Made by a program: the position numbers and the translations under genes | Shown: positions 4,755-21,280 of the stretch, one piece after another | Position numbering within the stretch: position 1 is the stretch's first letter | Layout: each line of letters opens with the position of its first letter | Notes under the pieces: generated by a model | What the model saw: only the letters and a program-made list of their open reading frames with translations | The model's database searches: none | Told to the model about the DNA's origin: nothing | NCBI GenBank assembly: GCA_964551945.1 | Contig: CAZKFH010000004.1 | Coordinates: 30,435-94,434 of the forward strand | Origin: an uncultured Actinomycetes bacterium | Lineage (GTDB): Bacteria > Actinomycetota > UBA4738 > CALAEC01 | Direction: 5' to 3' | DNA length: 64,000 nucleotides

Positions 4755-4839
4755 CGCTCGCTTCTCAGTGGCCGTGGGCTCGAGGGCGAACCCGTCGGTC
4801 GAGGGAGGCGTCACGGACGGCGATTCTAGCGGCGGCCGG

Positions 4840-6138
4840 CTAGCCGAAGCGGCCCGGAGAGCCGGCCCACGAGACCCCGGTTGGAACCTCCGCGAGCTCG
4901 TGGAGCTTCTCGAGGTGCGGCAGCGCGAGCTCCACGTCTCCCGCAGTCGGCTGCGCGGTCGCCAGAGCGGTCGCCCAACGCTCCGTCGCCCAGCGGACCG
5001 GGTCCCGCAGCAGTGACAGGGTCGCCTCGATCGCGTTCCGGTACGCATGGGCGGTGAGCTGGTCCGCCTGCAGTCGCTGCGACGCCTCTCGAGCGCGCGC
5101 CCCGATCCGCTCCCGCGCCGACGGATCGGCCCGCAGACGGCTGAGCGCATCCGCGAGCTCGAGGGCATCCGGTTCCCCCGCCGGGATGCGAACGACCGTA
5201 TCCTCGGGCGCGTCGAGGTACGAGCCCACCGCCTGAACGACCGTGGGCTTGCCGGCAGCCATCGCCCGCACCAGCGTGCCACTGACCTCGCCTCGGTGCG
5301 GATGGCGGAGGTTGACGACCACATCCACGGCATGCAGCCACGCATAGAAGTCGCGCTCCGAGGCGTCCCCCAGGACGGTCACTCGGTCCTGGACGCGGCT
5401 GTCCGCGACGAGCGCATCGATGTCGTAGCCGGGGATGCGTCTGCCCACGATCGCGACTCGGACGTCGCCCTCCAGATGAGAGACGGCGTCGAGCACCGCG
5501 TCGATCCCCTTCGAGCTGCCAATGTCCCCGAGTACGCCGATCACGAACGCATCGCCGAGTCCCTCGCTGATCTCTCGCGCTCGCTTGGGGGCGCGGCGCG
5601 CCGAGCGGGGTGGCGCGATGACCGGGTGCGGCACGACGTGGACCGGAGTCCGGGAGCCGATCGCCTCCATGTACTCGGCTCCGAAGGCCGAGTGCACCAT
5701 CACGCCGCGCGATCTGCGGACAAGGTGCGCGCACCAGGGCGTCTCGAGTGGCCCCTGGATCTCCGGCCGGGTCTCGTAGAGGCGAAGCCGGGCGGGCTCT
5801 GCTTCGGCGACCGCTCGCATGCCCAGGGGGTCTCCCGTATCGCGGAACCACCTCACCAGGTCGTCGATCGCCAGGTCGTGGAGCATCAACAGGCCGGGGT
5901 GGCGGATCGCGAGGCGGTAGATCTCGCCGTGGAACTCCGCGTTGTTGCCCACGTGATACACGGCCAGGTCCGCGGACGCGACCGTCTCGTCGACCCGGGG
6001 GTCGAGCGGCCACAGCACATCGATCCGGTGGCGCTTGTGGAATCCGATCTCCTTCAGCGACGCGAGGACCTGTTCGGAGTACGTCGCGATGCCCGAGCGC
6101 GCGGGCGGCATCGGTGAGAGGTAGGCGATGCGCGCCAT
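4840..6138 (-). CDS. Glycosyltransferase family 4 (GT-B, retaining)
   Basis: Start MARIAYLSPMPPARSGIATYS (GT4 N-terminal Gly-rich loop); C-terminal half has the GT4 EX7E-like region (...RGEVSGTLVRAMAAGKPTVV...). Same strand and operon as the decarboxylase. Confidence 0.75.
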   Translation of the reverse strand: MARIAYLSPMPPARSGIATYSEQVLASLKEIGFHKRHRIDVLWPLDPRVDETVASADLAVYHVGNNAEFHGEIYRLAIRHPGLLMLHDLAIDDLVRWFRDTGDPLGMRAVAEAEPARLRLYETRPEIQGPLETPWCAHLVRRSRGVMVHSAFGAEYMEAIGSRTPVHVVPHPVIAPPRSARRAPKRAREISEGLGDAFVIGVLGDIGSSKGIDAVLDAVSHLEGDVRVAIVGRRIPGYDIDALVADSRVQDRVTVLGDASERDFYAWLHAVDVVVNLRHPHRGEVSGTLVRAMAAGKPTVVQAVGSYLDAPEDTVVRIPAGEPDALELADALSRLRADPSARERIGARAREASQRLQADQLTAHAYRNAIEATLSLLRDPVRWATERWATALATAQPTAGDVELALPHLEKLHELAEVPTGVSWAGSPGRFG

Positions 6139-6145
6139 CAGCCCA

Positions 6146-7195
6146 TCAGCCCAGGAGTCGCGCGACGACCTCGGGCCACGGCGGCACGACCTCGCGCAGC
6201 AGCTTGTGCCCCGCTTCGCCCATCGCGCGCGCGACATCGGGATCGTTGGCGAGCGCGTCGATCGAGCCGGCGATCTCGCGAGGCTTCGGCGCCGCGACGA
6301 TGCCGTTCTCCCCGTCGCGGACGAGCTCGAGCGGACCGCCGCTGTCGGTGAGCGTGATCACGGGCTTGTGCGCCGCCATCGCCTCGAGCGTCACGTAGCC
6401 GTAGTCCTCGTCGAACGGTCCGTAGTAGACACCGAGCGCGTTCCGGTAGAGCTCGATCAGCCGCTCGTCAGTGACACCGCCCTCGAGCGTCACACGGTCG
6501 CTCAACCCCCGTTGGTCGATCAGCCTGCGGAGCTTCGGCTCGTCGGAGCCCGAGCCGACGAGCACCAAACGCACGCCGCCGTGCACGTGCCGCATGGACT
6601 CCGCGACCAGCGCCTGTCGCTTGAGCGGCTCGAGGCGGCTCGGGAACAGCACGTAGTCGCCGGTCTCGCCGGGCTCTGTCTCCAGCAACTTCTCGGTAAG
6701 GGGCGAGCGGTGGTAGAGCGCCTCGGCCGACATCCCGAGACTCTCGCGCAGACGGTCCCGCACGTTGACGGAGTTCGTGAAGATGCGCCGCGCCTCGGCG
6801 AGCCCCGCCCGGTCGGCCTTCCAGATGAGCTCGCGGACCCGCTCACCCTCGGGATACATCGCGAGGTCGCCGAAGACCGGGTGGCTCCAGAGCTCGTACG
6901 CCGCGCGGTGCTGATGGATCAGCCACACGACCTTCCGAGGATGGCGAACGAGGTACGCGGGGAACTTCAGCGCGATGACCATGTCGATCGGCATGCCGTT
7001 CGCCTCGGTCAGATCGAGGCTGCGCCAGAGCGCCATCTGATGGACGAGCTCCGGCGGCGGATACCACTTGAATGGGATCGGCAGGATGTCCACGTCGTGA
7101 CCTGCCTCGCGCAGCGCGCCGGCGAGCCCTTCCGTGTGGAACTCGCCGCCCCCGCGCGAGAACGGGGTCTGCGGGTGGCAGATGGCGATCCTCAT
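6146..7195 (-). CDS. Glycosyltransferase family 4
   Basis: 349 aa starting MRIAICHPQTPFSRGGGEFHTEGLAGALREAGHDV (PimA/MshA-like N-terminus); C-terminal ...EDYGYVTLEAMAAHKPVI... GT4 motif. 7-nt gap to the next GT4. Confidence 0.75.
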   Translation of the reverse strand: MRIAICHPQTPFSRGGGEFHTEGLAGALREAGHDVDILPIPFKWYPPPELVHQMALWRSLDLTEANGMPIDMVIALKFPAYLVRHPRKVVWLIHQHRAAYELWSHPVFGDLAMYPEGERVRELIWKADRAGLAEARRIFTNSVNVRDRLRESLGMSAEALYHRSPLTEKLLETEPGETGDYVLFPSRLEPLKRQALVAESMRHVHGGVRLVLVGSGSDEPKLRRLIDQRGLSDRVTLEGGVTDERLIELYRNALGVYYGPFDEDYGYVTLEAMAAHKPVITLTDSGGPLELVRDGENGIVAAPKPREIAGSIDALANDPDVARAMGEAGHKLLREVVPPWPEVVARLLG

Positions 7196-7640: not shown

Positions 7641-9356
7641 TTGTTGATACGGTTCCGCCGTATGTCCTTCCGAAAATCCCTGCGAGGCCTCGTCGTGCTC
7701 ATGCTGCTGGCTTCGGCTTGCAACGGTGACGATGGTCCCCCGGTCGAGACGCCCACCTCGGCGGCACCCACGACCACGGGCGGCACCACCGCGCCTCCCG
7801 AGGGGTTCGCGGAGGAGGTCGCGTGCGGCCTCCCGCCCCAGTGGCTTGCGCGCATCTGGCGCGGGTACCACCCGGAGCGCAGCGCGGACATCCAGATCCT
7901 GCCGAAGGTCCCGAACTTCATCGGCGCGGCACTGCCTCACGTCGGGCCGTGGGACTTCACCTCGGACGTCCCGATGTTCTGGTACGGCCCCGGCTACATC
8001 AAGCCGATCGGGCCGGTGCAGGAGCCCGTGACGTCGGCCGACATCACCGCGACGTTCGACCATCTGCTCGATTCGTCGTTCGAGCCCGTCGACGGGGAGC
8101 CGATGCTGGACGCGCTCGTCCCCGCCGAGGAGCGTCCGGAACCGCCCCGGCTCATCCTCGAGATGATCTGGGACGGAGCGGGTCGCAACGTGCTGACGCA
8201 GTGGCCCGACGCCTGGCCGAACCTCGCGGAGCTGCGTCCGCAGGGCGCGTGGTACGAGCACGCGACCGTCGGCTCCTCGCCGACCTCGTCCGCGCAGATC
8301 CACGCGACGATCGGGACCGGCGCCTTCCCGCGGAACCACGGCGTCGTCGGGCACAGCATCCGTATCGACGGAGAGATCGTCTCGCCGTGGAAGGACGGAG
8401 CGCGCGAGCTGCTCGTCGAGACGTTCGCCGATCACTTCGACCTCGAGCACGACAACGAGCCGATCGTCGGCGAGTCGGGCACCGTGCCGATCCAGCTGGG
8501 AATGATGAGCCGCGGCGCCCTCGCCGAGGGCGGCGACAAGGACATCGCGGTGCTCCGCACGCCGGGGAACGCCGAGACGCTCGGCGCGGAGGGCGTGGCC
8601 TGGAACCTCCCCGAGGGGTTCGACCAGTGGTACCGGTACGTGCCGTACGCGAACGACCTGCCAGAGCTCCCCACGTACTTCGACGACGTCGAGCTCGACG
8701 CGGGAGACGGCAAGCGCGACGGATTGTGGCACGGGCGAGCGTTCGAACAGTCGGACGAGCTTCTCGACGGGTTCCACACGCCGGCGCGCGTCCCGTATCA
8801 GACGCGGCTGGTCGAGGAGATGATCACGCGCGAGGGGTTCGGTGCGGACGAGACGACCGACCTCTTCTACATCAACTACAAGCTGATCGACGCGCTCGGG
8901 CACCTGTTCGGTATCCAGGACCCGGCGATCGGTGACGCGGTGCGCGCCCAGGACGACTCGCTGTCGCGGCTGATCGCGTTCCTCAACGAGCAGGTCGGCG
9001 AGAACCGCTGGGTGCTCCTGGTCACCGCCGACCACGGGTCGCTGGAGTCCACGCAGACGAGCGGGGCGTTCAATATCTCCGGCGAGGCGGTCAGCTCGGC
9101 GATCCAGGCGCGCTTCGACGAGGACGGGGACGAGGTCCCGGTGATCGAGCAGGTCAAGCAGACGGAGATCTTCATGAATATCTCGGAACTCGAGGAGCAG
9201 GGCCACACGCTGGAGGATGTGTCACGGTTCATCATGGATCTTCGGCAGCAGGATGTGCCGTTCCCCGGCTTCGAGGTGCCGTCACCGAACGAGAAGGTCT
9301 TCCAGGCCGCGTTCCCGGCCGAGGCACTCGAGTCGCTGCCGTGCCTCCAGGCCTAG
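7641..9356 (+). CDS. Type I phosphodiesterase / nucleotide pyrophosphatase-like (alkaline phosphatase superfamily) lipoprotein, paralog 1
   Basis: Signal peptide plus lipobox (LLASAC; alternative ATG start at 7662). Motifs LILEMIWDGAGRNVL (metal-binding Asp), GSSPTSSAQIHATIGTGAFPRNHG (NPP-type Thr nucleophile block, compare PT.T.PNH...TG..P..HGI) and C-terminal TADHGS. Confidence 0.75.
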   Translation: MLIRFRRMSFRKSLRGLVVLMLLASACNGDDGPPVETPTSAAPTTTGGTTAPPEGFAEEVACGLPPQWLARIWRGYHPERSADIQILPKVPNFIGAALPHVGPWDFTSDVPMFWYGPGYIKPIGPVQEPVTSADITATFDHLLDSSFEPVDGEPMLDALVPAEERPEPPRLILEMIWDGAGRNVLTQWPDAWPNLAELRPQGAWYEHATVGSSPTSSAQIHATIGTGAFPRNHGVVGHSIRIDGEIVSPWKDGARELLVETFADHFDLEHDNEPIVGESGTVPIQLGMMSRGALAEGGDKDIAVLRTPGNAETLGAEGVAWNLPEGFDQWYRYVPYANDLPELPTYFDDVELDAGDGKRDGLWHGRAFEQSDELLDGFHTPARVPYQTRLVEEMITREGFGADETTDLFYINYKLIDALGHLFGIQDPAIGDAVRAQDDSLSRLIAFLNEQVGENRWVLLVTADHGSLESTQTSGAFNISGEAVSSAIQARFDEDGDEVPVIEQVKQTEIFMNISELEEQGHTLEDVSRFIMDLRQQDVPFPGFEVPSPNEKVFQAAFPAEALESLPCLQA

Positions 9357-9598
9357 TCCCAGATCCGCTCCAGGTGCCACCGGCCGGAGCGCCGGTCCTG
9401 ATAGATGTCGCAGACCGCGCCGCCCCGCGCCTCCACCCGCCAGTACTCGCGGTCACGGCCGTCCTCCCACCACCGGCCCTCGATCCGCCAGCGGCCGATC
9501 ACGTCCGCGACCTGGTACTGCCGGGAACGCCAGCGGAACGCGGCGGGCATGCCGGCGTCACGCTCGACCTTGACCTCCTCGTCGTACCGGATCCCCAC
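9353..9598 (-). CDS. Small Trp/Arg-rich hypothetical protein, predicted SOS-inducible
   Basis: 3' part of listed ORF 9353..9859; candidate starts GTG 9598 (81 aa) or ATG 9550 (65 aa: MPAAFRWRSRQYQVADVIGRWRIEGRWWEDGRDREYWRVEARGG...). LexA box 10 nt upstream of the GTG. Convergent 4-nt overlap with paralog 1. Confidence 0.45.
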   Translation of the reverse strand: MGIRYDEEVKVERDAGMPAAFRWRSRQYQVADVIGRWRIEGRWWEDGRDREYWRVEARGGAVCDIYQDRRSGRWHLERIWD

Positions 9599-9608
9599 CT
9601 TCGCCCCC

Positions 9609-9624
9609 TCGAACGTATGTTCGA
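9609..9624. promoter_or_regulatory. LexA (SOS) operator TCGAAC-N4-GTTCGA
   Basis: Perfect palindrome TCGAACGTATGTTCGA in the 380-bp gap between two phosphodiesterase paralogs, immediately upstream of the minus-strand small ORF. Confidence 0.65.
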
Positions 9625-9737: not shown

Positions 9738-11387
9738 TTGACCGTTCGAGCGGGCGCGCTCCTCCTGCTGCTGGCGATGGCGGCAGCGTGCACGGAAGAC
9801 GCACCGACGCCGCGGTCGTCACCCTCGCCGACGGCCTCGGCGACCGCGTCCCCCTCCATCGATCCGTCCGAGCCGCCCAGCCGCTACGCGCGCATCGCCT
9901 GCAGCCTGCCGCGCGAGCAGATCCTGCGCGTGTACAACGGCACCAACCCCGATCGCTCCGGCGAGCTGCAGTTCGTTCCCCAGGAGCCGAACTACGTCGG
10001 GAACTTCGCGTCACACTCGGGACCGTGGGATTACCTCCAGGACGTCCCCCTGTTCCTCTACGGGCCCGGCCACGTTCCCGCGACCGGGGAAGTTCCCCGC
10101 AAGGCGACCGTCGCGGATCTCGCTCCGACGTACGCCGAGATGATCGACTTCGAGTTCGACGCTCCCGACGGCCAACCGCTGACGGAGGCGATCGGTCCCG
10201 CAGCGGATCCCCCGAAGCTGATCCTGACGGTCGTCTGGGACGGCGCCGGGATCAACGTGCTGGAGCAGTACCCGCGCGCGTGGCCGGTCGTGAAGGCCCT
10301 GATCCCCAACGGCGCCTGGTACGAGAACGCGACTGTGGGCTCCTCACCCTCGGTGACGCCGGCGATCCACTCGACGATCGGCACCGGCGCGTTCCCCCGC
10401 ACGCACGGGATCGTCGATCTGCGCTTCCGGATCGAGGGCGCCGTGGACCCCTCGGCGTTCCAACGAGCCACGCTGATGGTCGGTCCGAGCCTCGGTGACG
10501 TCTACGACGCCGCGCTCGACAATCAGCCCGTGATCGGGATGGTCGGCGCCGAGGGAACGCTCGGCATGATCGGGCACGGCTCGCTGTGGGAGAACGGTGA
10601 CTTCGACATCGCGGCGGCGTCGCGCGCCGGCGAGTGGGGGCTCGCCGGTAACAACAACGAGTTCTACGAGTTCCCGGCGTACGTCCACGACCTTCCCGGC
10701 TACGACAAGGTACCGGCTGAAGCCGATCGCGACGACGGCACAGTTGACGGCACGTGGTTCGGCGCCGAGCTCGACACGCCGGACAGCTACACATACACCG
10801 AGGCGTACAACCGCTACCAGACCGGAGTGATCGAGGAGGTCATCGAGCGGGAGGAGTTCGGCCGGGACGAGATCACCGACCTCCTGTACGTCAACTACAA
10901 GCAGATCGACAAGGTCGGGCACAAGTTCTCGTTCCCGTCGCAGGCCATGGAGAAGGCGGTGAAGGGAAGCGACAACGCGTTCGAGGCCCTGGTCGAGGTC
11001 CTAGACCGCCAGGTCGGCGAGGGTGAGTGGGTCATGGCGCTCACGGCCGACCACGGCTCCACCCCCTTGCCCGAGACGACCGGGGCGGTCATCATCGATA
11101 ACTTCGAGCTTGCCAGGGACCTCCTTGCCGAGTTCGATGGGGACGACGACGACCGGCCCGTGATCCAGAGCCCGCGCGTGACCCAGACCTGGGTCGACCT
11201 GGAGGAGCTCGAGGAGCACGGCCACACGTTGGAGGACATGGCGGACTACCTGATGGCGTACACGCGGGCCGACAACGCGGTCGACCCCTCGAGCGTTCCG
11301 GCCGACGCTGCAGATGATCGGCTGTTCGCCGCGTCGTTCCCGAGCGCGGAGCTCGACACGCTCCCCTGCCTGGAGCCGGCCTCATGA
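9738..11387 (+). CDS. Type I phosphodiesterase / nucleotide pyrophosphatase-like lipoprotein, paralog 2
   Basis: TTG start; signal peptide with lipobox (LAMAAAC). Motifs LILTVVWDGAGINVL, GSSPSVTPAIHSTIGTGAFPRTHG, LTADHGS. Colinear similarity to paralog 1 over the full length. Confidence 0.75.
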   Translation: MTVRAGALLLLLAMAAACTEDAPTPRSSPSPTASATASPSIDPSEPPSRYARIACSLPREQILRVYNGTNPDRSGELQFVPQEPNYVGNFASHSGPWDYLQDVPLFLYGPGHVPATGEVPRKATVADLAPTYAEMIDFEFDAPDGQPLTEAIGPAADPPKLILTVVWDGAGINVLEQYPRAWPVVKALIPNGAWYENATVGSSPSVTPAIHSTIGTGAFPRTHGIVDLRFRIEGAVDPSAFQRATLMVGPSLGDVYDAALDNQPVIGMVGAEGTLGMIGHGSLWENGDFDIAAASRAGEWGLAGNNNEFYEFPAYVHDLPGYDKVPAEADRDDGTVDGTWFGAELDTPDSYTYTEAYNRYQTGVIEEVIEREEFGRDEITDLLYVNYKQIDKVGHKFSFPSQAMEKAVKGSDNAFEALVEVLDRQVGEGEWVMALTADHGSTPLPETTGAVIIDNFELARDLLAEFDGDDDDRPVIQSPRVTQTWVDLEELEEHGHTLEDMADYLMAYTRADNAVDPSSVPADAADDRLFAASFPSAELDTLPCLEPAS

Positions 11388-14300
11388 CGAAGACCGGCCG
11401 CTCCTGGGCAGCGGTCGCGACCGTCACCGCGATCGTGGCGGTGATGGGGTGGCAGTTCTTCACCGACGCGTCTCGCGCGGTGCCGGCGTTCGACACCGCG
11501 TACTACGAGTGGCGCGTCGAGTACCTCTTGGCCGAGGAGCCCGGCGCGCTGATCGACCTGCGAGGGGCGGACGGCGCGCTCGCCAGCGGGTACCGCGTCG
11601 CTGAGCCGGTGCTGGGAGCGCTCCTGCGAACGGTCGGCGGGGTCGACGACTCCGTTCCGTCGGTCGTGCTCTCGATCCTGTTCCGCGTGCTGTGCGCGCT
11701 GGGGATGGCTGCGTTCGCGTGGCGGCACCGGAGGAACTGGCTCCTCTTCTACCTCACCCTGCTGACGATCCCGGCGCTGTTCCTGCTGCAGCGGTTCTTC
11801 GGCTACATGGACAACTTCATGACGGGGGCTCTGCTCGCGGGAGCGCTCGTGCTGCTCGACCGGATGCGGGAGTCCTGGGGGGCACGGATCGCCGTCACCT
11901 TGTTCTTCTTCCTCTCGGGGCTGAGCCATCCGACAACCCTCGTGATCCTGTTGCTGTCTCTCGGTGCCGTCGCGGTGTACCGGTTCGTACGGGAGCGGTC
12001 GCTCCTCAAGGCCCTGCAGTCGGAGGGCCTCGTCATCGCGACCGGCACGGTCTCGGTGATCATGACCGCGGCGTTCTGGTTGGGAGGCCTGTGGGGTCCG
12101 ACGTCCTCGTTCAGCGACGCGGCCGTCCCACCCCCGGCCGACGTCGACTATTTCGTCAACCGAAGCCTCGGCGTGATGAAGAACCTCCAGCCCTTCGACC
12201 CGGCCACCGCCCCGGACTGGATGGTGCTGCTTGGCGTCGCCGCGCTCGGCGCCCTGATGCTCGCGGGGCTGGTGCACCTTGTTCGGCGCATCGGCAAGGA
12301 CCGCGAGTACTTCGCGGAGATCACAGTCGGCTGGACGCTCCCGCTCCTGGGGATGCTCGGGTTCCTGGTCGGCTTCGCGTACCCGTACTTCCGCTTCTTC
12401 AACGCGACGCTCGCTCCTCTGTCGCTCGCGGCGCTCGGGCTGGCGCTGTTCATCGCGGGCGCACGGAAGATCGGCGGGCAGCGGCTCGCGGTGCTGGCGC
12501 TCGTGGCCGTCGTGGCCCTCCTCGGAGGCTGGTGGTACCGCGGCCTGTCGGCGTGGAACGAGACGGGGACGTGGCTCACGCCCGAGATCCGAACGACCAC
12601 CTCCGCGCTGAACGGCTACCTCGAAGCCGACCCCGACGTTCGGGCACTCATGGTGGTCGACGCCCAGGGCGAGTCGCAGGTCTCCTATGGCGCCTACAAG
12701 GAGTACCTGAACGCGACGTACGCGGGGATCGACGGAGAGAACATCGACCGCGTCACGTTCTTCTTCGGCCGCATCGAGGACCTCGAGGCCGGTCAGGCCA
12801 CGGAACTCCCCGGCAACGACGTCTACAACACGATCGCCACTGAGACCGCGAAGGAGGCACTCGCGGTCCTCGAGGAGGACAACGTCGTCGTGTTCCTGCC
12901 AGCCGAGATGAACACCCCCTCCTCAAACGAGGAATACCTGGGTGAATGCACCGAGGTCATCTTTCGGACCGGGACGTTCTTGAGCGACACCCAACCGTGT
13001 TCAGAGGTCGGGAACAGCGGTCTCTACGCGGTCCCCGGCTTGTCGTCATCTGAGATCGACGAAGCTTCCTTCCGAAGCGCTTTTGAAGCCGGCGCGACGG
13101 CCGCCTCGCAGGCGACCACCTTCGCAACCAATCCACCGGGGCCCTTCGAGAACATCGGTTCGACGCTGCTGGCAACGCTGAGGCTCGCGCTCCTCTTCCT
13201 GCTTCCCGGATGGCTCTTCTACCGGAGGTTCGAGCGGCGCTCGTTCCCCGAGGCACTCGCGCTCGTGCCGTTGTTCTCGATCGCGGCGGTGACCACGATC
13301 GGGGTCTTCGCGATGGCGATCGTCCGCTCGCCGTTCAGCCCGACCATCGGATGGGCATCGTGGGGCATCGCCGTGCTCATCGCGGCATTCTGGAGGCTCC
13401 CCGCAGGCATCCGCCGCCGTCGCGATGCGCTCTTCGCCGGTCCCGCCCGGCTGATCGACTCCACCGCCCTGCTCTTCAAGAAGCGCGACTTCACGGCATT
13501 GATGGGCGCGCAGTGGCTCGCACAGGCCGCGGACGGGCTCGTCGCGGCATCGATCGCGAAGCTCATCACGTTCGGTGGGCAGAGCGGCTTGGACGTCGAG
13601 GCCGCGGGCTCGCCGCGCGACGCGCTGGTGATCGTGCTGCTCACCTTCCTGCCCTACACCCTCTTCAGCCCGTTCCTCGGAGTCGCGATCGACCGCGGCG
13701 ACCGACGGAAGCTGCTGATCTGGGCGAACGCCGTGCGGACCGTGATCCTCGCCGCGATCGTGGTGCTCGGTCTCTCCACGATCGGCGACGCCGCGCTCTA
13801 CGTCTCGCTGCTCCTGGTTCTGGCCGGCACCCGTCTGTTGCTGGCGATCAAGAGCGCCGCGCTCCCGACGATCCTCGGCGGCCGTGACCTCCTGCAGGGC
13901 AACTCGATCTCCCAGGCCGGGAGCGCCCTGTTCCAGCTCTTCGGCGCGGGAGTCGGGCTCGTCGCGTCCGGGCTCCTGAACACGCGCGTGATCCTGATCG
14001 GCGGCGTGCTTCTCTACGCGGGAGCCACCGCTTCCTCGATCGCCGTTCGCAATCTCGCCGGCGACACGGGCAAGGACTCGCTCTCGGGCGAGCTTCGGCG
14101 GGTGTTCGGCAACATGATCGACGGCTTCAAGGAGGTGCGCCGCCGCGCGGCCGCCGGGATCGGCCTGCTCTCTTTCCTTACGGTGCGAAGCATGCTGACG
14201 ATGGTCGTCCTCGCGACCGGCTTCGCGTCCCGCGAGCTGATCGAGGCAGAGGGCCTCACCTCAACCGCGATTCCCGGTCTCGCCGGAGTGCTCGGGGCCG

Positions 14301-14731
14301 GCCTCGGATTCGTCATCGCGCACAACGTTCGTGAGCGCGTCGCGGCGGCTCGGATCGTCAGTGGTGCCCTGATCGTCGGTGCGATCGGCATGCTCGCGTT
14401 CGGCGGGATCGTGTCGATCCTTGGGATCTCGCTGATGGCATTCTCGGTGGGTCTCGCGTTCTTCCTCGGCAAGGTCGGGGTCGACACGATGATGCAGGAG
14501 GCCCTCGACGACCGGTTCCGAGGACGCGGCTTCAGCCTTCAGGACATCGCGTACAACATCTCCTGGCTGCTGCCGGCGTTCGTGCTGTACCTCTTCGTGG
14601 GTGAGAACTTCGACCGTGTACGGATCCTGCTCGTGATCGCGGGCGTCGTGTTCCTGGCGGTGGCGCTGCTGATCGGGTTCGCCGCGCGGCGCCTGCCCGT
14701 TACGGGAAAGGAACCGACGCGGGCGACGTGA
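11384..14731 (+). CDS. Large fusion membrane protein: N-terminal ~650-aa polytopic domain with a big extracytoplasmic loop (GT-C-like glycosyl/lipid transferase architecture, low confidence) fused to a C-terminal 12-TM MFS-type transporter domain
   Basis: 1115 aa; ATGA overlap with paralog 2 stop (translational coupling). N-domain has many hydrophobic helices, a first-loop DTAYYEWRVEY acidic motif and a ~250-aa soluble segment (residues ~400-650). C-domain (from ~FKKRDFTALMGAQWLAQAADGLVAAS...) has MFS-like paired 6+6 TM organisation with basic interhelix loops. Confidence 0.65.
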   Translation: MTKTGRSWAAVATVTAIVAVMGWQFFTDASRAVPAFDTAYYEWRVEYLLAEEPGALIDLRGADGALASGYRVAEPVLGALLRTVGGVDDSVPSVVLSILFRVLCALGMAAFAWRHRRNWLLFYLTLLTIPALFLLQRFFGYMDNFMTGALLAGALVLLDRMRESWGARIAVTLFFFLSGLSHPTTLVILLLSLGAVAVYRFVRERSLLKALQSEGLVIATGTVSVIMTAAFWLGGLWGPTSSFSDAAVPPPADVDYFVNRSLGVMKNLQPFDPATAPDWMVLLGVAALGALMLAGLVHLVRRIGKDREYFAEITVGWTLPLLGMLGFLVGFAYPYFRFFNATLAPLSLAALGLALFIAGARKIGGQRLAVLALVAVVALLGGWWYRGLSAWNETGTWLTPEIRTTTSALNGYLEADPDVRALMVVDAQGESQVSYGAYKEYLNATYAGIDGENIDRVTFFFGRIEDLEAGQATELPGNDVYNTIATETAKEALAVLEEDNVVVFLPAEMNTPSSNEEYLGECTEVIFRTGTFLSDTQPCSEVGNSGLYAVPGLSSSEIDEASFRSAFEAGATAASQATTFATNPPGPFENIGSTLLATLRLALLFLLPGWLFYRRFERRSFPEALALVPLFSIAAVTTIGVFAMAIVRSPFSPTIGWASWGIAVLIAAFWRLPAGIRRRRDALFAGPARLIDSTALLFKKRDFTALMGAQWLAQAADGLVAASIAKLITFGGQSGLDVEAAGSPRDALVIVLLTFLPYTLFSPFLGVAIDRGDRRKLLIWANAVRTVILAAIVVLGLSTIGDAALYVSLLLVLAGTRLLLAIKSAALPTILGGRDLLQGNSISQAGSALFQLFGAGVGLVASGLLNTRVILIGGVLLYAGATASSIAVRNLAGDTGKDSLSGELRRVFGNMIDGFKEVRRRAAAGIGLLSFLTVRSMLTMVVLATGFASRELIEAEGLTSTAIPGLAGVLGAGLGFVIAHNVRERVAAARIVSGALIVGAIGMLAFGGIVSILGISLMAFSVGLAFFLGKVGVDTMMQEALDDRFRGRGFSLQDIAYNISWLLPAFVLYLFVGENFDRVRILLVIAGVVFLAVALLIGFAARRLPVTGKEPTRAT

Positions 14732-16475
14732 GGTCGCCCTCCGGGTACTCGCCCGGACCCGCTGCACCCACTTGCGCGTCTGTCAGCGCGCCCAGGTAGT
14801 CGCCGGGAAACGCGCCGGCGAAGACCAGCCGATCGAGCTCCTCATCGGAGATCTTCGAGCGATCCGCGTCCTTCGGCAGACCGTCGCCGTAGCGGTATTC
14901 GCCCACGAACCGCGCGACGTCCTCGAGCGTGATGCCAGCGACGTCCATGGCCCCCCGATCGAGGAACAGGCCCGACGGGGTCACCTTCTGCACGATCTCG
15001 CGACCGAAGTACGCGTCGACGTCCTGGCCGAGCACGTCGGGGTGGATGCGAAGGCCGCCGGTGGTCTCCGGGAGCGGCGTCTGGCCGTGATCCGCGGTGT
15101 AGGCAAGCACCCACTCCCCCTTGCCGACCTCCCGGTCGAGCGTGTCGACGATCTCTCCGAGCAGCTGATCTTGCGCGCGCAATACCTCCTCCTCCTCGGG
15201 CGCGACCATGTTCCAGAGGTGACCGCCGAAGTCGGTCGGCTTCAGCTCGACGAACAGCAGGTCCGTGACGTCATCGTCGCCGAACGGCTCGCGGCGCATC
15301 ATCTCGAGCAGCGCCTGTCCCTGATGGATGACGAACGCCGGGGTCGCGGGGATGACCTTCGGGTCCTGCAGGTCGTACTCGTTCCACATCCCGTCGAGCT
15401 TGCCGTCCTCGGCGTCCTGCTCGTCGAGCCGCGCGCGCAGATCGTCCTCGCCGGGGAGGTAGTCGGGAACCTCGTACAGCTCCTCGTTCGCGAAGAACTC
15501 GCCGACCCCCTCGTCGGGGTTCCATAGAACCGCGACGTCGCGATCAGCGCCGGTCGGCTGAGCACCGTGACTCATCATCCCCAGGTGCCAGGACTCGTAG
15601 CCGATCATCCCCACCCAGGCCTCGTTGTTCGTGTCGAGATCCCACTGATCGGCCAACGTCGTATCGAGCAGCAGCTGAGGGTCGGCATCGTGCTCGAAGA
15701 AGAGATCGCCGACACTTCCGTCCGGGAGCCGACCGGTGATCTCCGCCATACCGTGACTGCTCGGGTACCGCCCGGTCCCCATGTTCGCGTGGATCGCTGA
15801 GGTGACTGCCGGCGCCGAGCCGATCGTGGCGTTCGTGAACACCGTCCCCTCATCCATCAGCCTGCGTAGCTCGGGCCACGCATCAGGCCAGCGTTCGAGC
15901 AGATTCCAGCCTCCCCCGTCGTACGCGACGAGGACGACGGCTCGCGGCCGCGTGGTGAGCGGCGCGGGCTGAGGCTCGGGAGGGGCAGGTGGGAGTGCCT
16001 CTCGAAGAGGCAGTCCTGCGGGGTCGAAGTAGTGAAGCGGGTGCCCGAACCGGGTCGTCTTCCCCAGCAGCCAGCCGAAGGACGGCGCCAGGTCAGTCAC
16101 ATCAACAGAGCGATCCGAGGGTGGCCCCGGCGTGATGTGCCCAGGCCCGTAGAGGACGATCGGGACGCGCTGGTGATAGCTCCATGGCGTCGGGTGAGTG
16201 GTGCTCGGGTCGGCGTCATCGGTGCCGAGACCTACGCCGCTCCAGCGGACCACCACGTTGTACGGCTCCGGCACGAACGCGATATCGGTCGAGGTCGCCG
16301 GGTAGTACCCCCGCCGCAGGGCCGTGAGGACGTCCCCGCCGACCGCCTCGGCCATCTGGTCGAGTGTGCGGGACTCTTGGGGCGGCCCCGGGACGGGACG
16401 AGGCTCTTCCTCCGTGCAGCCCGCAGCGAGGAGGAGAACCGTCAGGACGAGGGCCGCACGGGGCGCGGGAAGCAT
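14700..16475 (-). CDS. Type I phosphodiesterase / nucleotide pyrophosphatase-like lipoprotein, paralog 3
   Basis: 3' part of listed 811-aa ORF; start ATG 16475 (MLPAPRAALVLTVLLLAAGC lipobox). Motifs VVLVAYDGGGWNLL, GSAPAVTSAIHANMGTGRYPSSHG, YTADHGQ. 32-nt convergent overlap with the fusion gene. Confidence 0.75.
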   Translation of the reverse strand: MLPAPRAALVLTVLLLAAGCTEEEPRPVPGPPQESRTLDQMAEAVGGDVLTALRRGYYPATSTDIAFVPEPYNVVVRWSGVGLGTDDADPSTTHPTPWSYHQRVPIVLYGPGHITPGPPSDRSVDVTDLAPSFGWLLGKTTRFGHPLHYFDPAGLPLREALPPAPPEPQPAPLTTRPRAVVLVAYDGGGWNLLERWPDAWPELRRLMDEGTVFTNATIGSAPAVTSAIHANMGTGRYPSSHGMAEITGRLPDGSVGDLFFEHDADPQLLLDTTLADQWDLDTNNEAWVGMIGYESWHLGMMSHGAQPTGADRDVAVLWNPDEGVGEFFANEELYEVPDYLPGEDDLRARLDEQDAEDGKLDGMWNEYDLQDPKVIPATPAFVIHQGQALLEMMRREPFGDDDVTDLLFVELKPTDFGGHLWNMVAPEEEEVLRAQDQLLGEIVDTLDREVGKGEWVLAYTADHGQTPLPETTGGLRIHPDVLGQDVDAYFGREIVQKVTPSGLFLDRGAMDVAGITLEDVARFVGEYRYGDGLPKDADRSKISDEELDRLVFAGAFPGDYLGALTDAQVGAAGPGEYPEGDLTSPASVPFP

Positions 16476-16526
16476 GGAGCGGGATGATACCCGTCGTTGT
16501 GGAGCCGCTCGCGCGACAATGGCCGC

Positions 16527-17804
16527 ATGCTCTCCCGAAGACGGCTGCTCGTCGCCGTGGGTATCGCTGCCCTGATCACCCTCCCGGCCGGTGTGCTCGC
16601 CGGCCTTTGCGTCGGCAATGCCTGCCGCCGCGAGGAGCGAGCGACGGGACGCGTCCCCTTCTGCTCGCTTCCGCAGGACCTCCGCTCCCTGATCGCGGCC
16701 GGCTTTCGTGACGGACGCTCCCCGCACGTCATGACGGTGACGAGCCGGGAGGCGAATGCCGAGCCGGCCGAGATGCCGGTCGCGTTCGCCGGAACCGGCG
16801 TGACGCCGGGGGCCGAGGTTCCGGCCGGCACGACCCTCGACGCGGTGGCACCGACGCTGGCCGAGATCATCGGGCTCCGCCGGCCCCACCCCGGGGTGCG
16901 CTCGGGCGAACCGGTGAGCGGGGTCGCATCCGGCGAGGCTCCGCGACTCGTCGTGCTCGTCGCGTGGAAGGGAGTGACGAGCCGGCTGCTCGAGAGAAGT
17001 CCTCAGCTGTGGCCCGTTCTCCGGGGGCTGTTCGAGGACGGTGCGGGCACGCTCGAGGCGACGCCGGGCTCCCTTCCGCTCGACCCCGCAGCCCTGCTGG
17101 CAACGGTCGGGACCGGTGGCCTTCCCCGCGATCACGGCATCACGGGCTCGCTGATCCGGAACGATCAGGGTGACGTCGTCGAGCCCTGGTCCGAGGGCGC
17201 GCCGTTCTCGGTGATCGCGACGGTCGCGGACGACCTCGACGAGCTGGGACAGCAGGCGCCGCGGGTCGGCCTGATCGGTACCGAGGAGACGGACCGGGGG
17301 CTAGCCGGAGGGAACTGGTACGTCGAGAACGACACCGACGACGTCGTGATCGAGCCAACCCTCGAGGGGCAGGCCATCGCCGCGGACACTCTATTGAACT
17401 CCGGGTACGGCGCCGACGCGACCACCGACCTGCTCGCGGTCGCGATGGAGGGGCCCATCCCCCGGCTCGACCAAACCTTGGGACGCCTCCTGGTTGCCGC
17501 TGAACGCACGAGCGGAGGATCGCTCGCGGTGGCCGTCTTGGGAGCTCCATCCGTCACGCGCCAAGGAGCGGCGGCGTTGACTCCGGCCGAGCTCGAGACG
17601 GAGCTCCAGAATCGCCTCGAAGCCGACGTGGTCGAGGCTATCGTGGGGAACGGTGTGTTCCTCGACCAGGAAGCGATGACGGTGAGCGGCCTGTCGGACG
17701 ACCGTGTCGTCGTGGCGCTCCGAGGTCTCGAGACCCCGACGGGCGAACGCGTGTTCCTCGACGTCTTTCCCTCCATCGCGGTGACGTTCGCGAGGTATTG
17801 CTGA
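16527..17804 (+). CDS. Degenerate (likely catalytically inactive) paralog of the phosphodiesterase-like family
   Basis: Signal-like N-terminus (MLSRRRLLVAVGIAALITLPAGVLAGLC). Colinear with the paralogs, but the metal-binding Asp is replaced (LVVLVAWKGVTSRLL), the nucleophile block is mutated (GSLPLDPAALLATVGTGGLPRDHG) and the C-terminal ADHG motif is absent. Divergently transcribed from paralog 3 across a 51-bp gap. Confidence 0.6.
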   Translation: MLSRRRLLVAVGIAALITLPAGVLAGLCVGNACRREERATGRVPFCSLPQDLRSLIAAGFRDGRSPHVMTVTSREANAEPAEMPVAFAGTGVTPGAEVPAGTTLDAVAPTLAEIIGLRRPHPGVRSGEPVSGVASGEAPRLVVLVAWKGVTSRLLERSPQLWPVLRGLFEDGAGTLEATPGSLPLDPAALLATVGTGGLPRDHGITGSLIRNDQGDVVEPWSEGAPFSVIATVADDLDELGQQAPRVGLIGTEETDRGLAGGNWYVENDTDDVVIEPTLEGQAIAADTLLNSGYGADATTDLLAVAMEGPIPRLDQTLGRLLVAAERTSGGSLAVAVLGAPSVTRQGAAALTPAELETELQNRLEADVVEAIVGNGVFLDQEAMTVSGLSDDRVVVALRGLETPTGERVFLDVFPSIAVTFARYC

Positions 17805-18814
17805 TGTCGGTCGCGAACGCAACACCGCAGCCGCAGACGGTCGCGAGCCGGAGAACGCTCGTCGCCGTCGGCGCGGGACTGCTCGTCACGGCGGTCGGGC
17901 TTCGCGCCCTCGACGCGCTCGGCGTGGCCTCGCTCAGGAACTTCCTGATCGTCTTCGCGTCGCTCCTCGTGGAGGCGCTCCCGTTCATCGTGCTCGGCGC
18001 GGCGGTCTCGGCGTTGATCGAGGTCTTCGTCCCCGCGAGCGTCTTCGCCAAGCTGGCCCGCCTGCCCCGCGCGCTGCAGCAGCCGGTCGCGGGACTCGGG
18101 GGCTTCGCGTTCCCGGTCTGCGAGTGCGGCTCCGTGCCGGTCGCGCGCCGACTGGTCGCGAAGGGCATGGCACCCGCGGCCGCGATCACGTTCATGCTGG
18201 CCGCGCCCATCCTCAACCCCGTCGTCCTGGCCGCGACCGCCATCGCGTACCGGGGTCGAGACATCCTGTGGCCGATGGTGCTCGGGCGTGCGGGACTCGG
18301 CTTCCTGGTGGCGATCGTCGCGGGTTGGGTGGTCGGGACGGGTCGAGGCCAGGACATCCTTCGAGGTGGGGCATCCCGTGGTGGACTTCACGACCACGGC
18401 GACGTGCCGGAGGCGCGCTGGGCCGAGTACTTCGGCCACCTCGCGAGTGACTTCACGCTCCTTGCCCGTTACCTCGTGATCGGCGCGGCGATCGCAGCCG
18501 CGCTGCAGACGTTCGTTCCCCAGCAGGTGCTTGGCTCTGTCGCCGAGACCCCGATCCTCAATGTCGCGGCGCTCATGGTCCTCGCGTCGCTCCTGTCCCT
18601 ATGCTCCGAGTCGGATGCGTTCGTCGCTGCCTCCTTCGTGCAGTTCGGGCCCTCGGCGCAGCTTGCCTTCCTCGTGGCCGGTCCGATGATCGACGCGAAG
18701 CTGGCCGTGCTCTACGGCGGAACGTTCCGCCGCGGCTTCGTGCTGACGATCACGGCCGCGGTCTTCTCGTTGACGCTCGCCGGTGCCCTGTGGTTCCAGG
18801 TGGCGTTCGGATGA
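17798..18814 (+). CDS. Permease, DUF318/ArsP-like family (CxC motif) - first component of a two-gene permease
   Basis: 338 aa, ~8 TM; conserved ...FAFPVCECGSVPVARRL... motif characteristic of the DUF318 predicted-permease family. Confidence 0.7.
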   Translation: MLMSVANATPQPQTVASRRTLVAVGAGLLVTAVGLRALDALGVASLRNFLIVFASLLVEALPFIVLGAAVSALIEVFVPASVFAKLARLPRALQQPVAGLGGFAFPVCECGSVPVARRLVAKGMAPAAAITFMLAAPILNPVVLAATAIAYRGRDILWPMVLGRAGLGFLVAIVAGWVVGTGRGQDILRGGASRGGLHDHGDVPEARWAEYFGHLASDFTLLARYLVIGAAIAAALQTFVPQQVLGSVAETPILNVAALMVLASLLSLCSESDAFVAASFVQFGPSAQLAFLVAGPMIDAKLAVLYGGTFRRGFVLTITAAVFSLTLAGALWFQVAFG

Positions 18815-19512
18815 GGCGCTGGAGCGGCTCCCGGCTCGCGCAGACCCTGGCGCTCGCGGCGTGGGGCGGCCTCTTTTGGTTCCTGCTCTTCGCCGACCGG
18901 ACCTCCCTCTATCTTTCCTCCCGGACGGCGTGGGTCGTGCCGGTCGGGGCGATCGGCCTCACCATCGCGGCGCTCGGTCGCCTCGCCACGGCACGCACGC
19001 CGAGCCCCGGTCCGCTGGGTCGAGGCACCGTCTGGGCCGTCGGATTCGTGCTGCTTCCCGTCGTCGCGATCCTGGTGCTACCCCCGGCGGCGCTCGGCTC
19101 GTATGCCGCATCCCGCCGCTCGCTTTCCTCTGGACTTGTCGCGAGCGCTCCTGCGCTCGAGGCCGGCGGCACCGTCACACTCGCCGCCGTTGCCGCTGCG
19201 GGCTGGTCGGAGGACGCGAGACGTTCGCTCGTGTCACGCGCGGGCAGCCGTGTGTCCTTCGAGGGCATCGTGACGAAGCGAGCCGGCCAGGCCGCGGACG
19301 AGTTCATGCTCACGAGGTTCATCGTCTCCTGCTGCGTCGCGGACGCGCTCAGCGTGCAGGTGCGCGTGGTCGGAGCGCCCCCTGGAGAGTTCGAGGAAGA
19401 CGACTGGGTGCGGGTCAGCGGCGCCTTCTACCCGGTGGGTCAGGAGGTCGTGGTCGATGCGTCCGAGATCCAGCCGATCCCCCAGCCGGACGATCCGTAC
19501 CTGAACGTCTAG
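18811..19512 (+). CDS. TIGR03943/DUF1980-family membrane protein (partner of DUF318 permeases)
   Basis: 3' part of listed ORF 18601..19512; ATG 18811 overlaps the upstream stop (ATGA). N-terminal 2-3 TM then a soluble domain with a CC pair (FIVSCCVADA); this family is canonically adjacent to DUF318. Confidence 0.6.
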   Translation: MRRWSGSRLAQTLALAAWGGLFWFLLFADRTSLYLSSRTAWVVPVGAIGLTIAALGRLATARTPSPGPLGRGTVWAVGFVLLPVVAILVLPPAALGSYAASRRSLSSGLVASAPALEAGGTVTLAAVAAAGWSEDARRSLVSRAGSRVSFEGIVTKRAGQAADEFMLTRFIVSCCVADALSVQVRVVGAPPGEFEEDDWVRVSGAFYPVGQEVVVDASEIQPIPQPDDPYLNV

Positions 19513-21233: not shown

Positions 21234-21280
21234 GGGATGGGTAGAATATGCGCTCCCGGCCCACTGGAGAGACGATCCCT

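Follow-up and report, generated by a model that had tools for sequence, protein, structure and literature searches.

In the three-component scheme described for extracytoplasmic glycosylation, the flippase step is assigned to unproven proteins of the GtrA/SMR or MATE type, candidates that were put forward mostly from gene context and without direct assays (PMC11127046). Proteins with a DUF2304 domain, such as GacJ and Rv3632, bind and stimulate the synthases that feed GT-C enzymes (10.1101/180810). The flippases of polyprenyl-monophosphate sugars, among them Und-P-Glc, decaprenyl-P-arabinose, and Dol-P-Man, are still poorly defined. Precedents for the movement of amphipathic lipids by MFS proteins are provided by LtaA, LplT, Rv1410/MHAS2168, and EfpA. 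LtaA is an MFS lipid transporter that flips the lipoteichoic-acid anchor, LplT-Aas joins an MFS flippase to the enzyme that processes the flipped lipid, and Rv1410 is encoded in an operon with the lipoprotein LprG. The locus described here was found in an uncultured Actinomycetes bacterium, in a window of 64,000 nucleotides that represents the whole stretch of DNA analyzed. Like the GtrA/GtrB/Gtr*, CsbB/GtcA/YfhO, GacI-GacJ/GacK/GacL, and PpgS-Rv3632/Rv3779 systems and the MATE-dependent pentofuranose system (GT136), it brings together in one cluster an outward-facing GT-C and a GT2 polyprenyl-phosphate-sugar synthase that has a DUF2304 partner domain. Unlike in these systems, the place of the GtrA/SMR, MATE, or Wzx protein is taken by an MFS as the candidate flippase, which is joined covalently to the GT-C; the GT-C lies outside the described sequence families, the candidate sugar is sulfoquinovose, and the module is set among five AP-superfamily probable lipoproteins. 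The reading favored here, to which we assign a probability of about 0.5, is that the GT-C transferase and the MFS flippase of a three-component extracytoplasmic glycosylation system are joined in a single chain. The probable purpose of this arrangement is that one protein both flips a lipid-linked sugar through the membrane and uses it on the outer side.

The fusion gene (11384 to 14731, + strand) encodes a GT-C domain, a linker helix, and an MFS domain, and its translation from an ATG start was uninterrupted to 1,115 aa. As the original prediction had it, the start codon overlaps the stop codon of the gene upstream (9738 to 11387), the ATG and TGA sharing the sequence ATGA. A GGAG was present ~9 nt 5' of the ATG, and the GC3 value of 0.90 was usual for real genes of this window (68% GC). 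The full-length protein was modeled with a pLDDT of 79 and a pTM of 0.74. The identical fused frame recurred in 77 clusters of the database, and of the 20 GTDB species-representative loci found, at least 10 carried it. Because the frame recurs in this way across clusters and species, the frameshift, assembly, or two-gene artifact that had been raised as a possible origin was excluded, and the gene is real and conserved in uncultured Actinomycetota. The prediction that no homolog of this architecture has been characterized also held for Pfam, NCBIfam, PDB sequences, and the literature searched. That literature, with most subscription journals outside its scope, contained nothing on point regarding GT-C-MFS fusions, DUF6541, or polyprenyl-linked sulfoquinovose. 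The PADLOC defense models gave no match.

Fused proteins accounted for 77 of the 146 near-full-length relatives. In the unfused relatives, the orthologous MFS was encoded separately in the same cluster wherever the flank sufficed; hence both halves, as had been proposed for checking, were found as separate genes in related genomes, and the separate MFS of locus L003 was 51% identical to the C-terminal domain of the fusion. Fused members, reaching down to 27 to 33% identity, formed at least three to four distinct blocks in a rough tree. This tree was a UPGMA clustering and not a proper phylogeny, so that fusion and fission events can be counted from it only approximately. Among 1.84 billion, the GT-C family had 432 representatives, and all named sources were uncultured Actinomycetota MAGs. 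The MFS subfamily was just as narrow, with 87 matches, all named ones from Actinomycetota, and a sharp fall in E value from 6e-42 to 5e-15. Judged from gene organization and distribution, the recurrent fusion, the separate MFS in the same cluster, and the equally narrow subfamilies indicate that the two halves are functionally linked.

The GT-C domain (aa 1 to 690; 11384 to 13453, + strand, as for all features within the fusion) was composed of 11 TM helices, an outer soluble domain, and 3 further TM helices. The 14 TM helices predicted agree with the more than 10 hydrophobic helices originally described, and the soluble segment, first put at ~250 aa, was closer to 200 aa (aa 394 to 590; 12563 to 13153), with an alpha/beta secondary structure in the model. 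This outer domain contained 33 Asp and Glu versus 9 Lys and Arg residues, and its Cys522 and Cys539 were present in at least 90% of sequences. By structure comparison, the modeled domain had a GT-C fold, with a multi-TM core of GT-C architecture. No Pfam or NCBIfam family matched aa 1 to 690 at an E value of <0.01, and no STT3/GT66, PMT/GT39, PMT_2/ArnT GT83, YfhO, Emb/Aft, or DUF6541 profile scored above threshold; DUF6541 reached 7.4 bits here and at most an E value of 8e-5 in 4 of 27 relatives, below its cutoff of 29. Searching PDB sequences with the domain profile gave nothing useful. Membership in the YfhO, PMT, STT3, or ArnT families by sequence was thus rejected for lack of matches. Of the two architectures first suggested, the GT-C fold was borne out, and the YfhO-like alternative was unsupported because PF09586, like the other GT-C Pfam families, gave no match. 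The possibility, also considered at the outset, that the domain is an MFS or other transporter repeat in extended or duplicated form was rejected on a Foldseek probability of ≤0.12 and a TM of ~0.1 for transporters. Compared with AglB/STT3/PglB, ArnT, AftA, and ALG12, the domain showed 9 to 13% sequence identity and no profile match, and it differed in the three extra TM helices after the soluble domain, which return the chain to the cytoplasm, and in the fused MFS.

Alignments of the homologs revealed three conserved motifs in outer loops. In the first outer loop, after TM1, the motif D28...D37-T-A-Y-Y-E-W-R (11465 to 11524; alignments A1 and A2) contains the candidate catalytic Asp. The acidic sequence DTAYYEWRVEY, singled out in the original prediction, occupies aa 37 to 47 (11492 to 11524), and its D37, Y41, W43, and R44 were invariant in both alignments (36 and 37 homologs). 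Together with these four, D28, R31, and P34 were invariant in A1, and the same set minus R31 was invariant in A2; the equivalent of D37 was at least 90% conserved in relatives at 16 to 40% identity to the reference sequence and close to invariant in those at 20 to 35%. The second motif, G-Y-M-D143-N144-F (11801 to 11818), was located by the alignments and predicted topology in the TM3-TM4 outer loop, with G140, D143, and N144 invariant in A1 and A2, and is presumably comparable to the second DxD-type motif of oligosaccharyltransferases. The outer-face placement of both motifs was derived from helix order and the positive-inside rule. The most conserved peptide, Y-P-Y-F-R-F-F-N-A-T in the TM9-TM10 outer loop (12380 to 12409), had Y333, P334, Y335, R337, F338, N340, and T342 invariant in both alignments and served as the pattern for the locus search. 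From the modeled fold and these conserved residues, we infer sugar-transfer chemistry, the domain being a putative membrane enzyme of an undescribed GT-C family.

The best structural matches of the GT-C domain were the oligosaccharyltransferases AglB and STT3B, and PMT and DPY19 were also among the matches. In addition, the upstream genes PDE2 and PDE1, the latter at 7662 to 9356 (+ strand), encode probable lipoproteins with long Ser/Thr/Pro-rich linkers after the signal-peptide Cys. These observations would fit a dedicated protein glycosyltransferase that attaches O- or N-glycans to these linkers, much as Pmt modifies actinobacterial lipoproteins, with the MFS supplying the lipid-linked donor. 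A conserved WW-x-R-G sequence (WWYRG here, aa 383 to 387) directly before the outer domain could be counted for this, as it stands at the site of the WWDxG motif of oligosaccharyltransferases. However, the Asp of WWDxG was absent, the third position being variable among the aligned homologs and not Asp; neither STT3 nor PMT was matched in Pfam; and ALG12, AftA, and ArnT scored nearly as well as the oligosaccharyltransferases, so that the fold match is not specific. Dedicated protein glycosylation was therefore considered very improbable.

The MFS domain (aa 701 to 1101; 13484 to 14686) was matched by Pfam MFS_1 across aa 730 to 1063 (E value, 4e-13; 49.5 bits against a cutoff of 33.4) and modeled with 12 helices, with a Foldseek TMt of ~0.75 to VMAT, NorA, EfpA, and MHAS2168, as expected of the complete 12-TM permease that had been predicted. 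Motif A (G-x-x-x-D-R-x-x-R-R/K, between TM2 and TM3) was present as GVAIDRGDRRKLL at aa 766 to 778 (13679 to 13717), with G766, D770, R771, and R774 invariant. The conserved, membrane-embedded residues D717, R817, K823, K1030, and D1034 suggest that the domain is proton coupled. All curated models scored below cutoff, the best being TIGR00900 of the DHA3/EntS type (80 of 320 bits), followed by LplT (28 of 1,221) and Mef(A) (21.5 of 675), and PDB sequence searches with either the single sequence or a profile gave nothing useful. The domain resembles LtaA, LplT, Rv1410/MHAS2168, and EfpA as a 12-TM MFS with motif A but has no close sequence relationship to them, and its fusion partner is a GT-C, whereas that of LplT-Aas is an acyltransferase.

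The most informative neighbors, absent from the original prediction, were two genes 6.5 to 9 kb downstream. The first (21248 to 22468, + strand) is a clear SQD1/SqdB orthologue by sequence comparison and would encode a UDP-sulfoquinovose synthase. It matched NF041015 over its full length (E value, 6e-145; 483 bits, below the strict equivalog cutoff of 575) and Arabidopsis SQD1 (PDB 1i24) with 537 bits, aa 12 to 394 aligning to 12 to 393. The second (22469 to 23524, + strand) encodes a GT2 polyprenyl-phosphate-sugar synthase with an N-terminal, GacJ/Rv3632-like DUF2304 membrane domain. Pfam GT2 covered aa 130 to 290, and DUF2304 covered aa 7 to 106 at an E value of 1.4e-4 (22.6 bits, just under the cutoff of 25.5). 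Its best NCBIfam matches were AglJ, PpgS, and Dol-P-hexose transferase, and its best PDB matches were the Dol-P-Man synthase 5mlz and ArnC. This gene was within the cluster in 7/7 fused loci with enough flank as well as in L029 and the distant L030 (47% identity; PF10066 recorded there without a weak mark), and it was conserved in L005, L006, L009, L013, L014, L017, L019, L029, and L030. It was the only polyprenyl-P-sugar synthase and the fusion the only GT-C in the window cluster, with no further GT-C paralogues detected in the window by tblastn. A clear SQD1 orthologue is shared with SQD1/SqdB-dependent SQDG synthesis and with archaeal Agl3-dependent sulfoquinovose N-glycans. In SQDG systems, however, the transferase is SqdX/SQD2 or SqdD, whereas here SQD1 abuts a GT2 of the polyprenyl-P-sugar type, which implies that delivery to an extracytoplasmic acceptor takes a lipid-carrier route. 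No description of such a route for sulfoquinovose was found in the literature searched, and the cluster sugar may be sulfoquinovose.

Among the cluster ORFs scanned, no GtrA, SMR, MATE, or Wzx flippase was found; orf146 had been considered as a GtrA-like candidate and was rejected because it is a charged soluble protein. The MFS thus holds the place of the flippase in a cluster that has no gene of these types. A different cargo would be the acceptor. Two GT4-type (Pfam Glycos_transf_1) glycosyltransferases, GT4a (4840 to 6138) and GT4b (6149 to 7195; both - strand), and a PF04185 phosphoesterase of the phospholipase C/acid phosphatase family (1963 to 3393, + strand) were syntenic with the fusion in most loci. 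The GT4 pair could assemble a diacylglycerol-based glycolipid, with the PF04185 enzyme possibly releasing the diacylglycerol; the MFS would flip this glycolipid, in the manner of LtaA, and the GT-C would extend or decorate it outside, as in the PimA/PimB-then-PimE order of mycobacteria. MFS lipid transporters are known in Gram-positive bacteria and Actinobacteria, MHAS2168/Rv1410 and EfpA being among the Foldseek matches, and a weak similarity to the LplT part of PRK08633 (E value, 5e-7) points in the same direction. On the other hand, the MFS had no specific sequence similarity to LtaA, the donor would still require a flippase, and the GT4 genes were absent from the flanks of L026, L028, and L030, while GT2-DUF2304, MFS, and GT-C persisted in L030. 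Acceptor flipping by the MFS was hence judged unlikely.

The gene coupled to the fusion, PDE2 (9738 to 11387, + strand), belongs to PF01663 of the AP superfamily. It had been described as a secreted phosphodiesterase; the signal peptide and conserved linkage were upheld, and its identity was revised, the closest relatives being PafA/PhoK alkaline phosphatases and the signal peptide ending in Cys, which makes it a probable lipoprotein. In most loci with contigs long enough on that side, a gene of this type lay immediately 5' of the GT-C gene, consistent with the proposed coupling; exceptions were L007 and L024, with an unrelated 692-aa ORF in between, and L008, which had no PDE2-type gene. Visual inspection of the 139 bp preceding PDE2 revealed no PHO box. 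PDE1 is a paralogous PF01663 protein, as is the probable lipoprotein PDE3, encoded convergently (14700 to 16475, - strand) with a 32-nt 3' overlap with the fusion gene and adjoining the separate MFS gene in unfused genomes. PDE4w (16497 to 17804, + strand; Pfam E value of 7e-4, below cutoff) is a divergent, apparently catalytically degenerate paralogue with VAWKG in place of the WDG metal-ligand motif, retained in the cluster even in L030 (43% identity). PDE5 (19509 to 21233, - strand) is the fifth paralogue. An ArsP_1 permease (17798 to 18814) and a TIGR03943/DUF1980 subunit (18811 to 19512; both + strand) formed a pair that was conserved along with the cluster, with two copies in L030.

Five PafA/PhoK-like paralogues, a phospholipase C/acid phosphatase gene, and the translational coupling of an AP-superfamily gene to the GT-C gene could also be expected of phosphate scavenging. 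In such a scheme, the lipoproteins would cleave external or wall organophosphates, the MFS would import the product or export a cofactor, and the GT-C-like domain would be a noncatalytic scaffold or substrate-binding module. Noncatalytic GT-C folds exist, PIG-U being among the structure-comparison matches, and some sources name the relatives "sugar phosphate permease". However, the MFS fitted DHA3/EntS-like models and not those of organophosphate:Pi antiporters, the acidic and aromatic outer-face residues of the GT-C were invariant, as in active enzymes, and the scheme would offer no explanation for the conserved GT2-DUF2304 synthase and SQD1. Phosphate scavenging as the primary role was considered quite improbable.

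Under the favored reading of a fused transferase and flippase, GT2-DUF2304 would load a sugar from its UDP-sugar onto polyprenyl phosphate at the cytoplasmic face. UDP-sulfoquinovose would be the leading candidate donor in this genome, as the SQD1 orthologue lies directly upstream of this gene. The MFS domain would then carry the anionic polyprenyl-phosphate-sugar to the outer leaflet or, less likely, move a lipid acceptor or recycle polyprenyl phosphate. The GT-C domain, through its invariant outer-face acidic and aromatic residues, would pass the sugar on to an acceptor in the envelope; candidates are a glycopolymer of the wall, a GT4-made glycolipid, and the lipoproteins of the cluster with their Ser/Thr/Pro-rich linkers. 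That same envelope substrate might also be processed by the cotranslated PafA/PhoK-like lipoproteins, or these might scavenge phosphate from it. SQDG is associated with phosphate-sparing metabolism, and the whole cluster with its phospholipase C/acid phosphatase gene could plausibly serve envelope remodeling under phosphate scarcity, with phosphate-based anionic groups giving way to sulfonate. In its most specific form, the proposal would make the MFS a dedicated polyprenyl-phosphate-sulfoquinovose flippase with direct hand-off to the GT-C, which would sulfoquinovosylate a wall polymer, glycolipid, or lipoprotein outside, the lineage thereby swapping phosphate- for sulfonate-based surface charge when phosphate is scarce. 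This extended version is speculative and rather unlikely as a whole; if true, extracytoplasmic sulfoquinovosylation that depends on a lipid carrier and an MFS-type flippase for a polyprenyl-monophosphate sugar would each be the first of their kind.

The recurrent natural fusion of a GT-C with a dedicated MFS serves as a Rosetta-stone pointer to a new type of flippase, and its N-terminal domain defines an unannotated GT-C family. As a single polypeptide, it could be purified and donor hand-off followed by cryo-EM and proteoliposome assays. For the organism, SQD1 next to a polyprenyl-P-sugar synthase suggests a route for sulfoquinovose to the bacterial cell surface, which would be relevant both to the phosphate-sparing chemistry of the envelope and to sulfoquinovose cycling in the environment.

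The ORF at 11384-14731 (+) was confirmed to begin with ATG and to encode 1,115 aa free of internal stops, and its GC3 of 0.90 resembles that of other real genes in this 68% GC window. The predicted translational-coupling overlap was likewise found, with ATGA comprising the start codon of the fusion gene and the TGA of the ORF at 9738-11387; GGAG lies ~9 nt upstream of the ATG. At the other end, the gene shares 32 nt (14700-14731) with the 3' end of the convergent phosphodiesterase-like gene PDE3 (-), an overlap that recurs in the related loci L005 and L006. The sole Pfam match in the protein was MFS_1 (aa 730-1063, 49.5 bits; cutoff, 33.4), and the NCBIfam matches were to MFS subfamily models alone, all sub-threshold (TIGR00900 at 80 bits, the LplT part of PRK08633, and Mef(A)).

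Residues 1-690 gave no Pfam or NCBIfam match at E<0.01, also when queried separately. This region was aligned with 35 unfused homologues, and the resulting AlphaFold2 model (pLDDT 85.9, pTM 0.89) opened with TM1 (aa 7-27) and a long first loop that bears short helices. Another ten TM helices lead into a soluble alpha/beta domain (aa 394-590), and a final three TM helices close the region, in agreement with the >10 hydrophobic helices originally predicted. In a Foldseek search with the model, GT-C families filled the top 11 positions with a probability of 1.0, supporting the suspected GT-C-like fold, and a transporter fold was rejected, as transporters matched only at TM ~0.1. Since all of the short Arg/Lys-rich loops share one side, the N terminus is placed inside, the first loop and soluble domain outside, and the C terminus inside. 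The invariant residues (D28, D37, Y41, W43, R44, R71, D143, N144, H182-T184, Y333-P-Y-x-R-F-x-N340, and W391/W397) are all at the outer face, and Cys522 and Cys539 of the soluble domain, kept in at least 90% of sequences, fit an outer location. The D37 equivalent is nearly invariant in relatives at only 16-40% identity to the reference sequence; therefore, no feature of the family is better conserved than the acidic first-loop motif singled out in the original prediction (DTAYYEWRVEY, aa 37-47). By sequence, the N-domain falls outside every named GT-C family, the sole echo of a known family being a weak, below-cutoff match to DUF6541 (best E 8e-5) in 4 of the 27 distant relatives. Overall, these features make the N-domain a GT-C-fold enzyme whose active site looks intact, outside every described sequence family.

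A full-length model, based on an alignment of 37 fused proteins (pLDDT 79, pTM 0.74), has 12 TM helices between aa 701 and 1101, preceded by a linker helix (aa 674-698). Against solved MFS transporters, including VMAT1/2, NorA, EfpA, and MHAS2168, the C-domain gave target TM-scores of ~0.75 in Foldseek. Conserved features include MFS motif A (GVAIDRGDRRKLL, aa 766-778), the counterpart of this motif in the C-half (DDRFRGRG, aa 1042-1049), and the membrane-embedded residues D717, R817, K823, K1030, and D1034. The C-terminal domain is a complete MFS, as the predicted 12-TM permease had implied; by sequence, it falls outside the named MFS subfamilies tested.

A query with the N-domain matched 123 proteins in two length classes, ~1,100 aa with MFS_1 and ~680 aa without, and all taxonomically labelled ones were from Actinomycetota metagenome-assembled genomes (one labelled Propionibacteriaceae). 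Among 1.84 billion cluster representatives, a profile search returned only 432 matches at E<1e-3, again in both length classes, and the GTDB species set contained 20 loci only, each from a MAG whose title reads uncultured Actinomycetota or actinobacterium. An orthologous MFS is attached in 77/146 near-full-length family members, and a frameshift or two-gene artefact was rejected on this count. Fused forms occupy at least three to four separate blocks of a rough distance tree, some members being just 27-33% identical. Unfused versions of both halves were sought in related genomes and found; there, the MFS orthologue is a separate gene within the same cluster, on the opposite strand adjoining PDE3 (L003/L004, L007/L024, L026, and L028), separated by one small gene (L023), or ~10 kb away (L029, the same contig as L001/L018). 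The L003 MFS is 51% identical to the window C-domain across 421 aa. An MFS-domain query gave only 87 proteins at E<=1e-10, of the same lineage, with a steep drop from E 6e-42 to 5e-15. Given this shared lineage and the occurrence of the halves either fused or in the same cluster, the GT-C and MFS therefore form a dedicated, co-distributed pair. The fusion is real, recurrent, and informative, and no report of a GT-C/MFS fusion was found in the searchable literature, which is incomplete.

Genomes with the unfused arrangement hold extra 600-680 aa proteins without a Pfam match (L029 6223-9935; L003 10047-11996; L007 11997-14039; L008 64-1881 and 7945-9852). These form their own family at ~28-43% identity between loci, with none in the window; two faintly resemble the GT-C family (L029_604 versus L030_672, E 6e-10), and by sequence they may be further GT-C paralogues. 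In L001/L029, with ~10 kb between GT-C and MFS, the neighbours of the GT-C gene encode a putative pyruvyl-transferase-like protein (493 aa, faint PS_pyruv_trans match), another GT2 (403 aa), and a sulfotransferase-like protein (271 aa, weak Sulfotransfer_3 match), the first and last being putative further enzymes adding phosphate-free anionic groups.

Mapping of the window proteins onto 28 related loci revealed a conserved cluster of, in listed order, a PF04185 phosphoesterase (PLC/acid phosphatase family), a PLP decarboxylase (some loci), two GT4-type transferases (4840-7195, -), the small soluble orf146, PDE1 (7662-9356, +), DUF6504 (opposite strand), PDE2 (9738-11387, +), the GT-C/MFS gene, PDE3 (14700-16475, opposite strand), the degenerate paralogue PDE4w, an ArsP_1 permease with a TIGR03943 subunit, PDE5 (19509-21233, opposite strand), an "epimerase," and GT2-DUF2304. 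The distant cluster L030 (MFS 40% and GT-C 31% identical) keeps the PDE genes, MFS, GT-C, ArsP/TIGR03943, and GT2-DUF2304, with a Wzy_C protein added; thus, the conserved core consists of PDE, MFS, GT-C, GT2-DUF2304, and the permease pair. The PDE proteins belong to PF01663 and are nearest to PafA/PhoK alkaline phosphatases. By eye, the metal-ligand and nucleophile motifs of PDE1, PDE2, and PDE3 look intact. Each of these three proteins has a signal peptide with Cys at its end, and in the first two a linker rich in Ser, Thr, and Pro comes next. Such linkers in co-encoded lipoproteins are what a dedicated protein glycosyltransferase acting on them might use, and oligosaccharyltransferases were the top structural matches of the N-domain, which has WW-x-R-G at the position of their WWDxG; however, the fold match is unspecific and the Asp of that motif is missing, making this reading very improbable.

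PDE4w (16497-17804, +) is PF01663-like with a signal-anchor-like N terminus, and its metal-ligand motifs are apparently lost (VAWKG in place of WDG, no clear DHG). It is kept across the cluster family, even in L030 (43% identity), and may be a pseudo-enzyme subunit. The ArsP_1 permease and TIGR03943/DUF1980 subunit (17798-19512, +) are always in the cluster and are duplicated in L030 (3403-8215); they weakly resemble Cu/Zn efflux transporters (SO_0444 family), and one possible role is to supply the secreted AP-superfamily enzymes with metal. The group II PLP-dependent decarboxylase (3390-4760, -) is also in L005 and absent from L006 and L009; its best model was diaminobutyrate decarboxylase, with a score far below cutoff. 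The perfect palindrome TCGAACGTATGTTCGA (9606-9623) precedes the probable GTG start codon of the DUF6504 gene (9353-9598, -; PF20114, E 1e-13) by ~10-25 nt, within the 139-bp divergent region common to DUF6504 and the PDE2-GT-C/MFS operon, and fits the actinobacterial LexA SOS box (TCGAAC-N4-GTTCGA). In L003, DUF6504 adjoins a DNA_alkylation protein and a DnaE2-like polymerase; yet its synteny with the PDE/GT-C cluster holds in almost every locus.

The cluster "epimerase" (21248-22468, +) is a UDP-sulfoquinovose synthase, matching Arabidopsis SQD1 (PDB 1i24) over its full length at 537 bits and NF041015 at E 6e-145. The GT2-DUF2304 gene (22469-23524, +) begins one base past its stop; DUF2304 forms the N-terminal membrane domain (22.6 bits, just below the Pfam cutoff of 25.5), and the GT2 is closest to AglJ, PpgS, Dol-P-hexose transferases, Dol-P-Man synthase, and ArnC, all polyprenyl-phosphate glycosyltransferases. 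The pair (21248-23524, +) is kept in at least 8 related loci, its second gene being of this type and not an SqdX- or SqdD-type sulfolipid synthase. This suggests lipid-carrier-linked sulfoquinovose; no report of polyprenyl-linked sulfoquinovose was found in the searchable literature, which is incomplete. SQD1 was not found in the L030 flank, and the choice of sugar seems to be set by it in some of the clusters, this window included.

The working of the fusion protein most resembles that of a three-component glycosylation system. The DUF2304 proteins GacJ and Rv3632 complex with and stimulate GT2 polyprenyl-P-sugar synthases, whose products are consumed outside the membrane by the GT-C enzymes GacL and Rv3779, and natural GacI-GacJ fusions are known (10.1101/180810). 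Such systems need a flippase, with GtrA/SMR-type or MATE candidates for which direct proof is lacking (PMC11127046). No GtrA, SMR, MATE, or Wzx gene was found in the cluster, and orf146 was rejected as its flippase, being a soluble protein. The fusion is the only GT-C and GT2-DUF2304 the only carrier-sugar synthase in the cluster, and in the absence of a known flippase gene a three-step scheme is therefore proposed. Beyond the established folds, conserved outer-face residues, topology, fusion/fission pattern, and gene linkage, GT2-DUF2304 would load a sugar onto polyprenyl phosphate, the foremost candidate in this genome being sulfoquinovose; the MFS domain would flip the product; and the fused GT-C would transfer the sugar to an envelope acceptor. 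Alternatively, the MFS could flip a glycolipid acceptor made by the GT4 enzymes, which we consider unlikely. In contrast to known three-component systems, an MFS holds the flippase position in the proposed scheme and is fused to the GT-C, the GT-C is from an unannotated family, and the sugar is possibly different.

The three-step model does not call for the constant pairing with AP-superfamily lipoproteins, which is the main feature that it leaves unexplained. A phosphate-scavenging complex, with the GT-C-like domain as a non-catalytic scaffold, is a distinctly unlikely alternative. GacH and LtaS-type enzymes act as phosphotransferases in other systems. Under the three-step model, the lipoproteins may act on the same polymer, either as phosphotransferases or as hydrolases scavenging its phosphate. 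Together with the PLC/acid phosphatase gene and SQD1, the gene content makes a role of the cluster in phosphate-sparing remodelling plausible.
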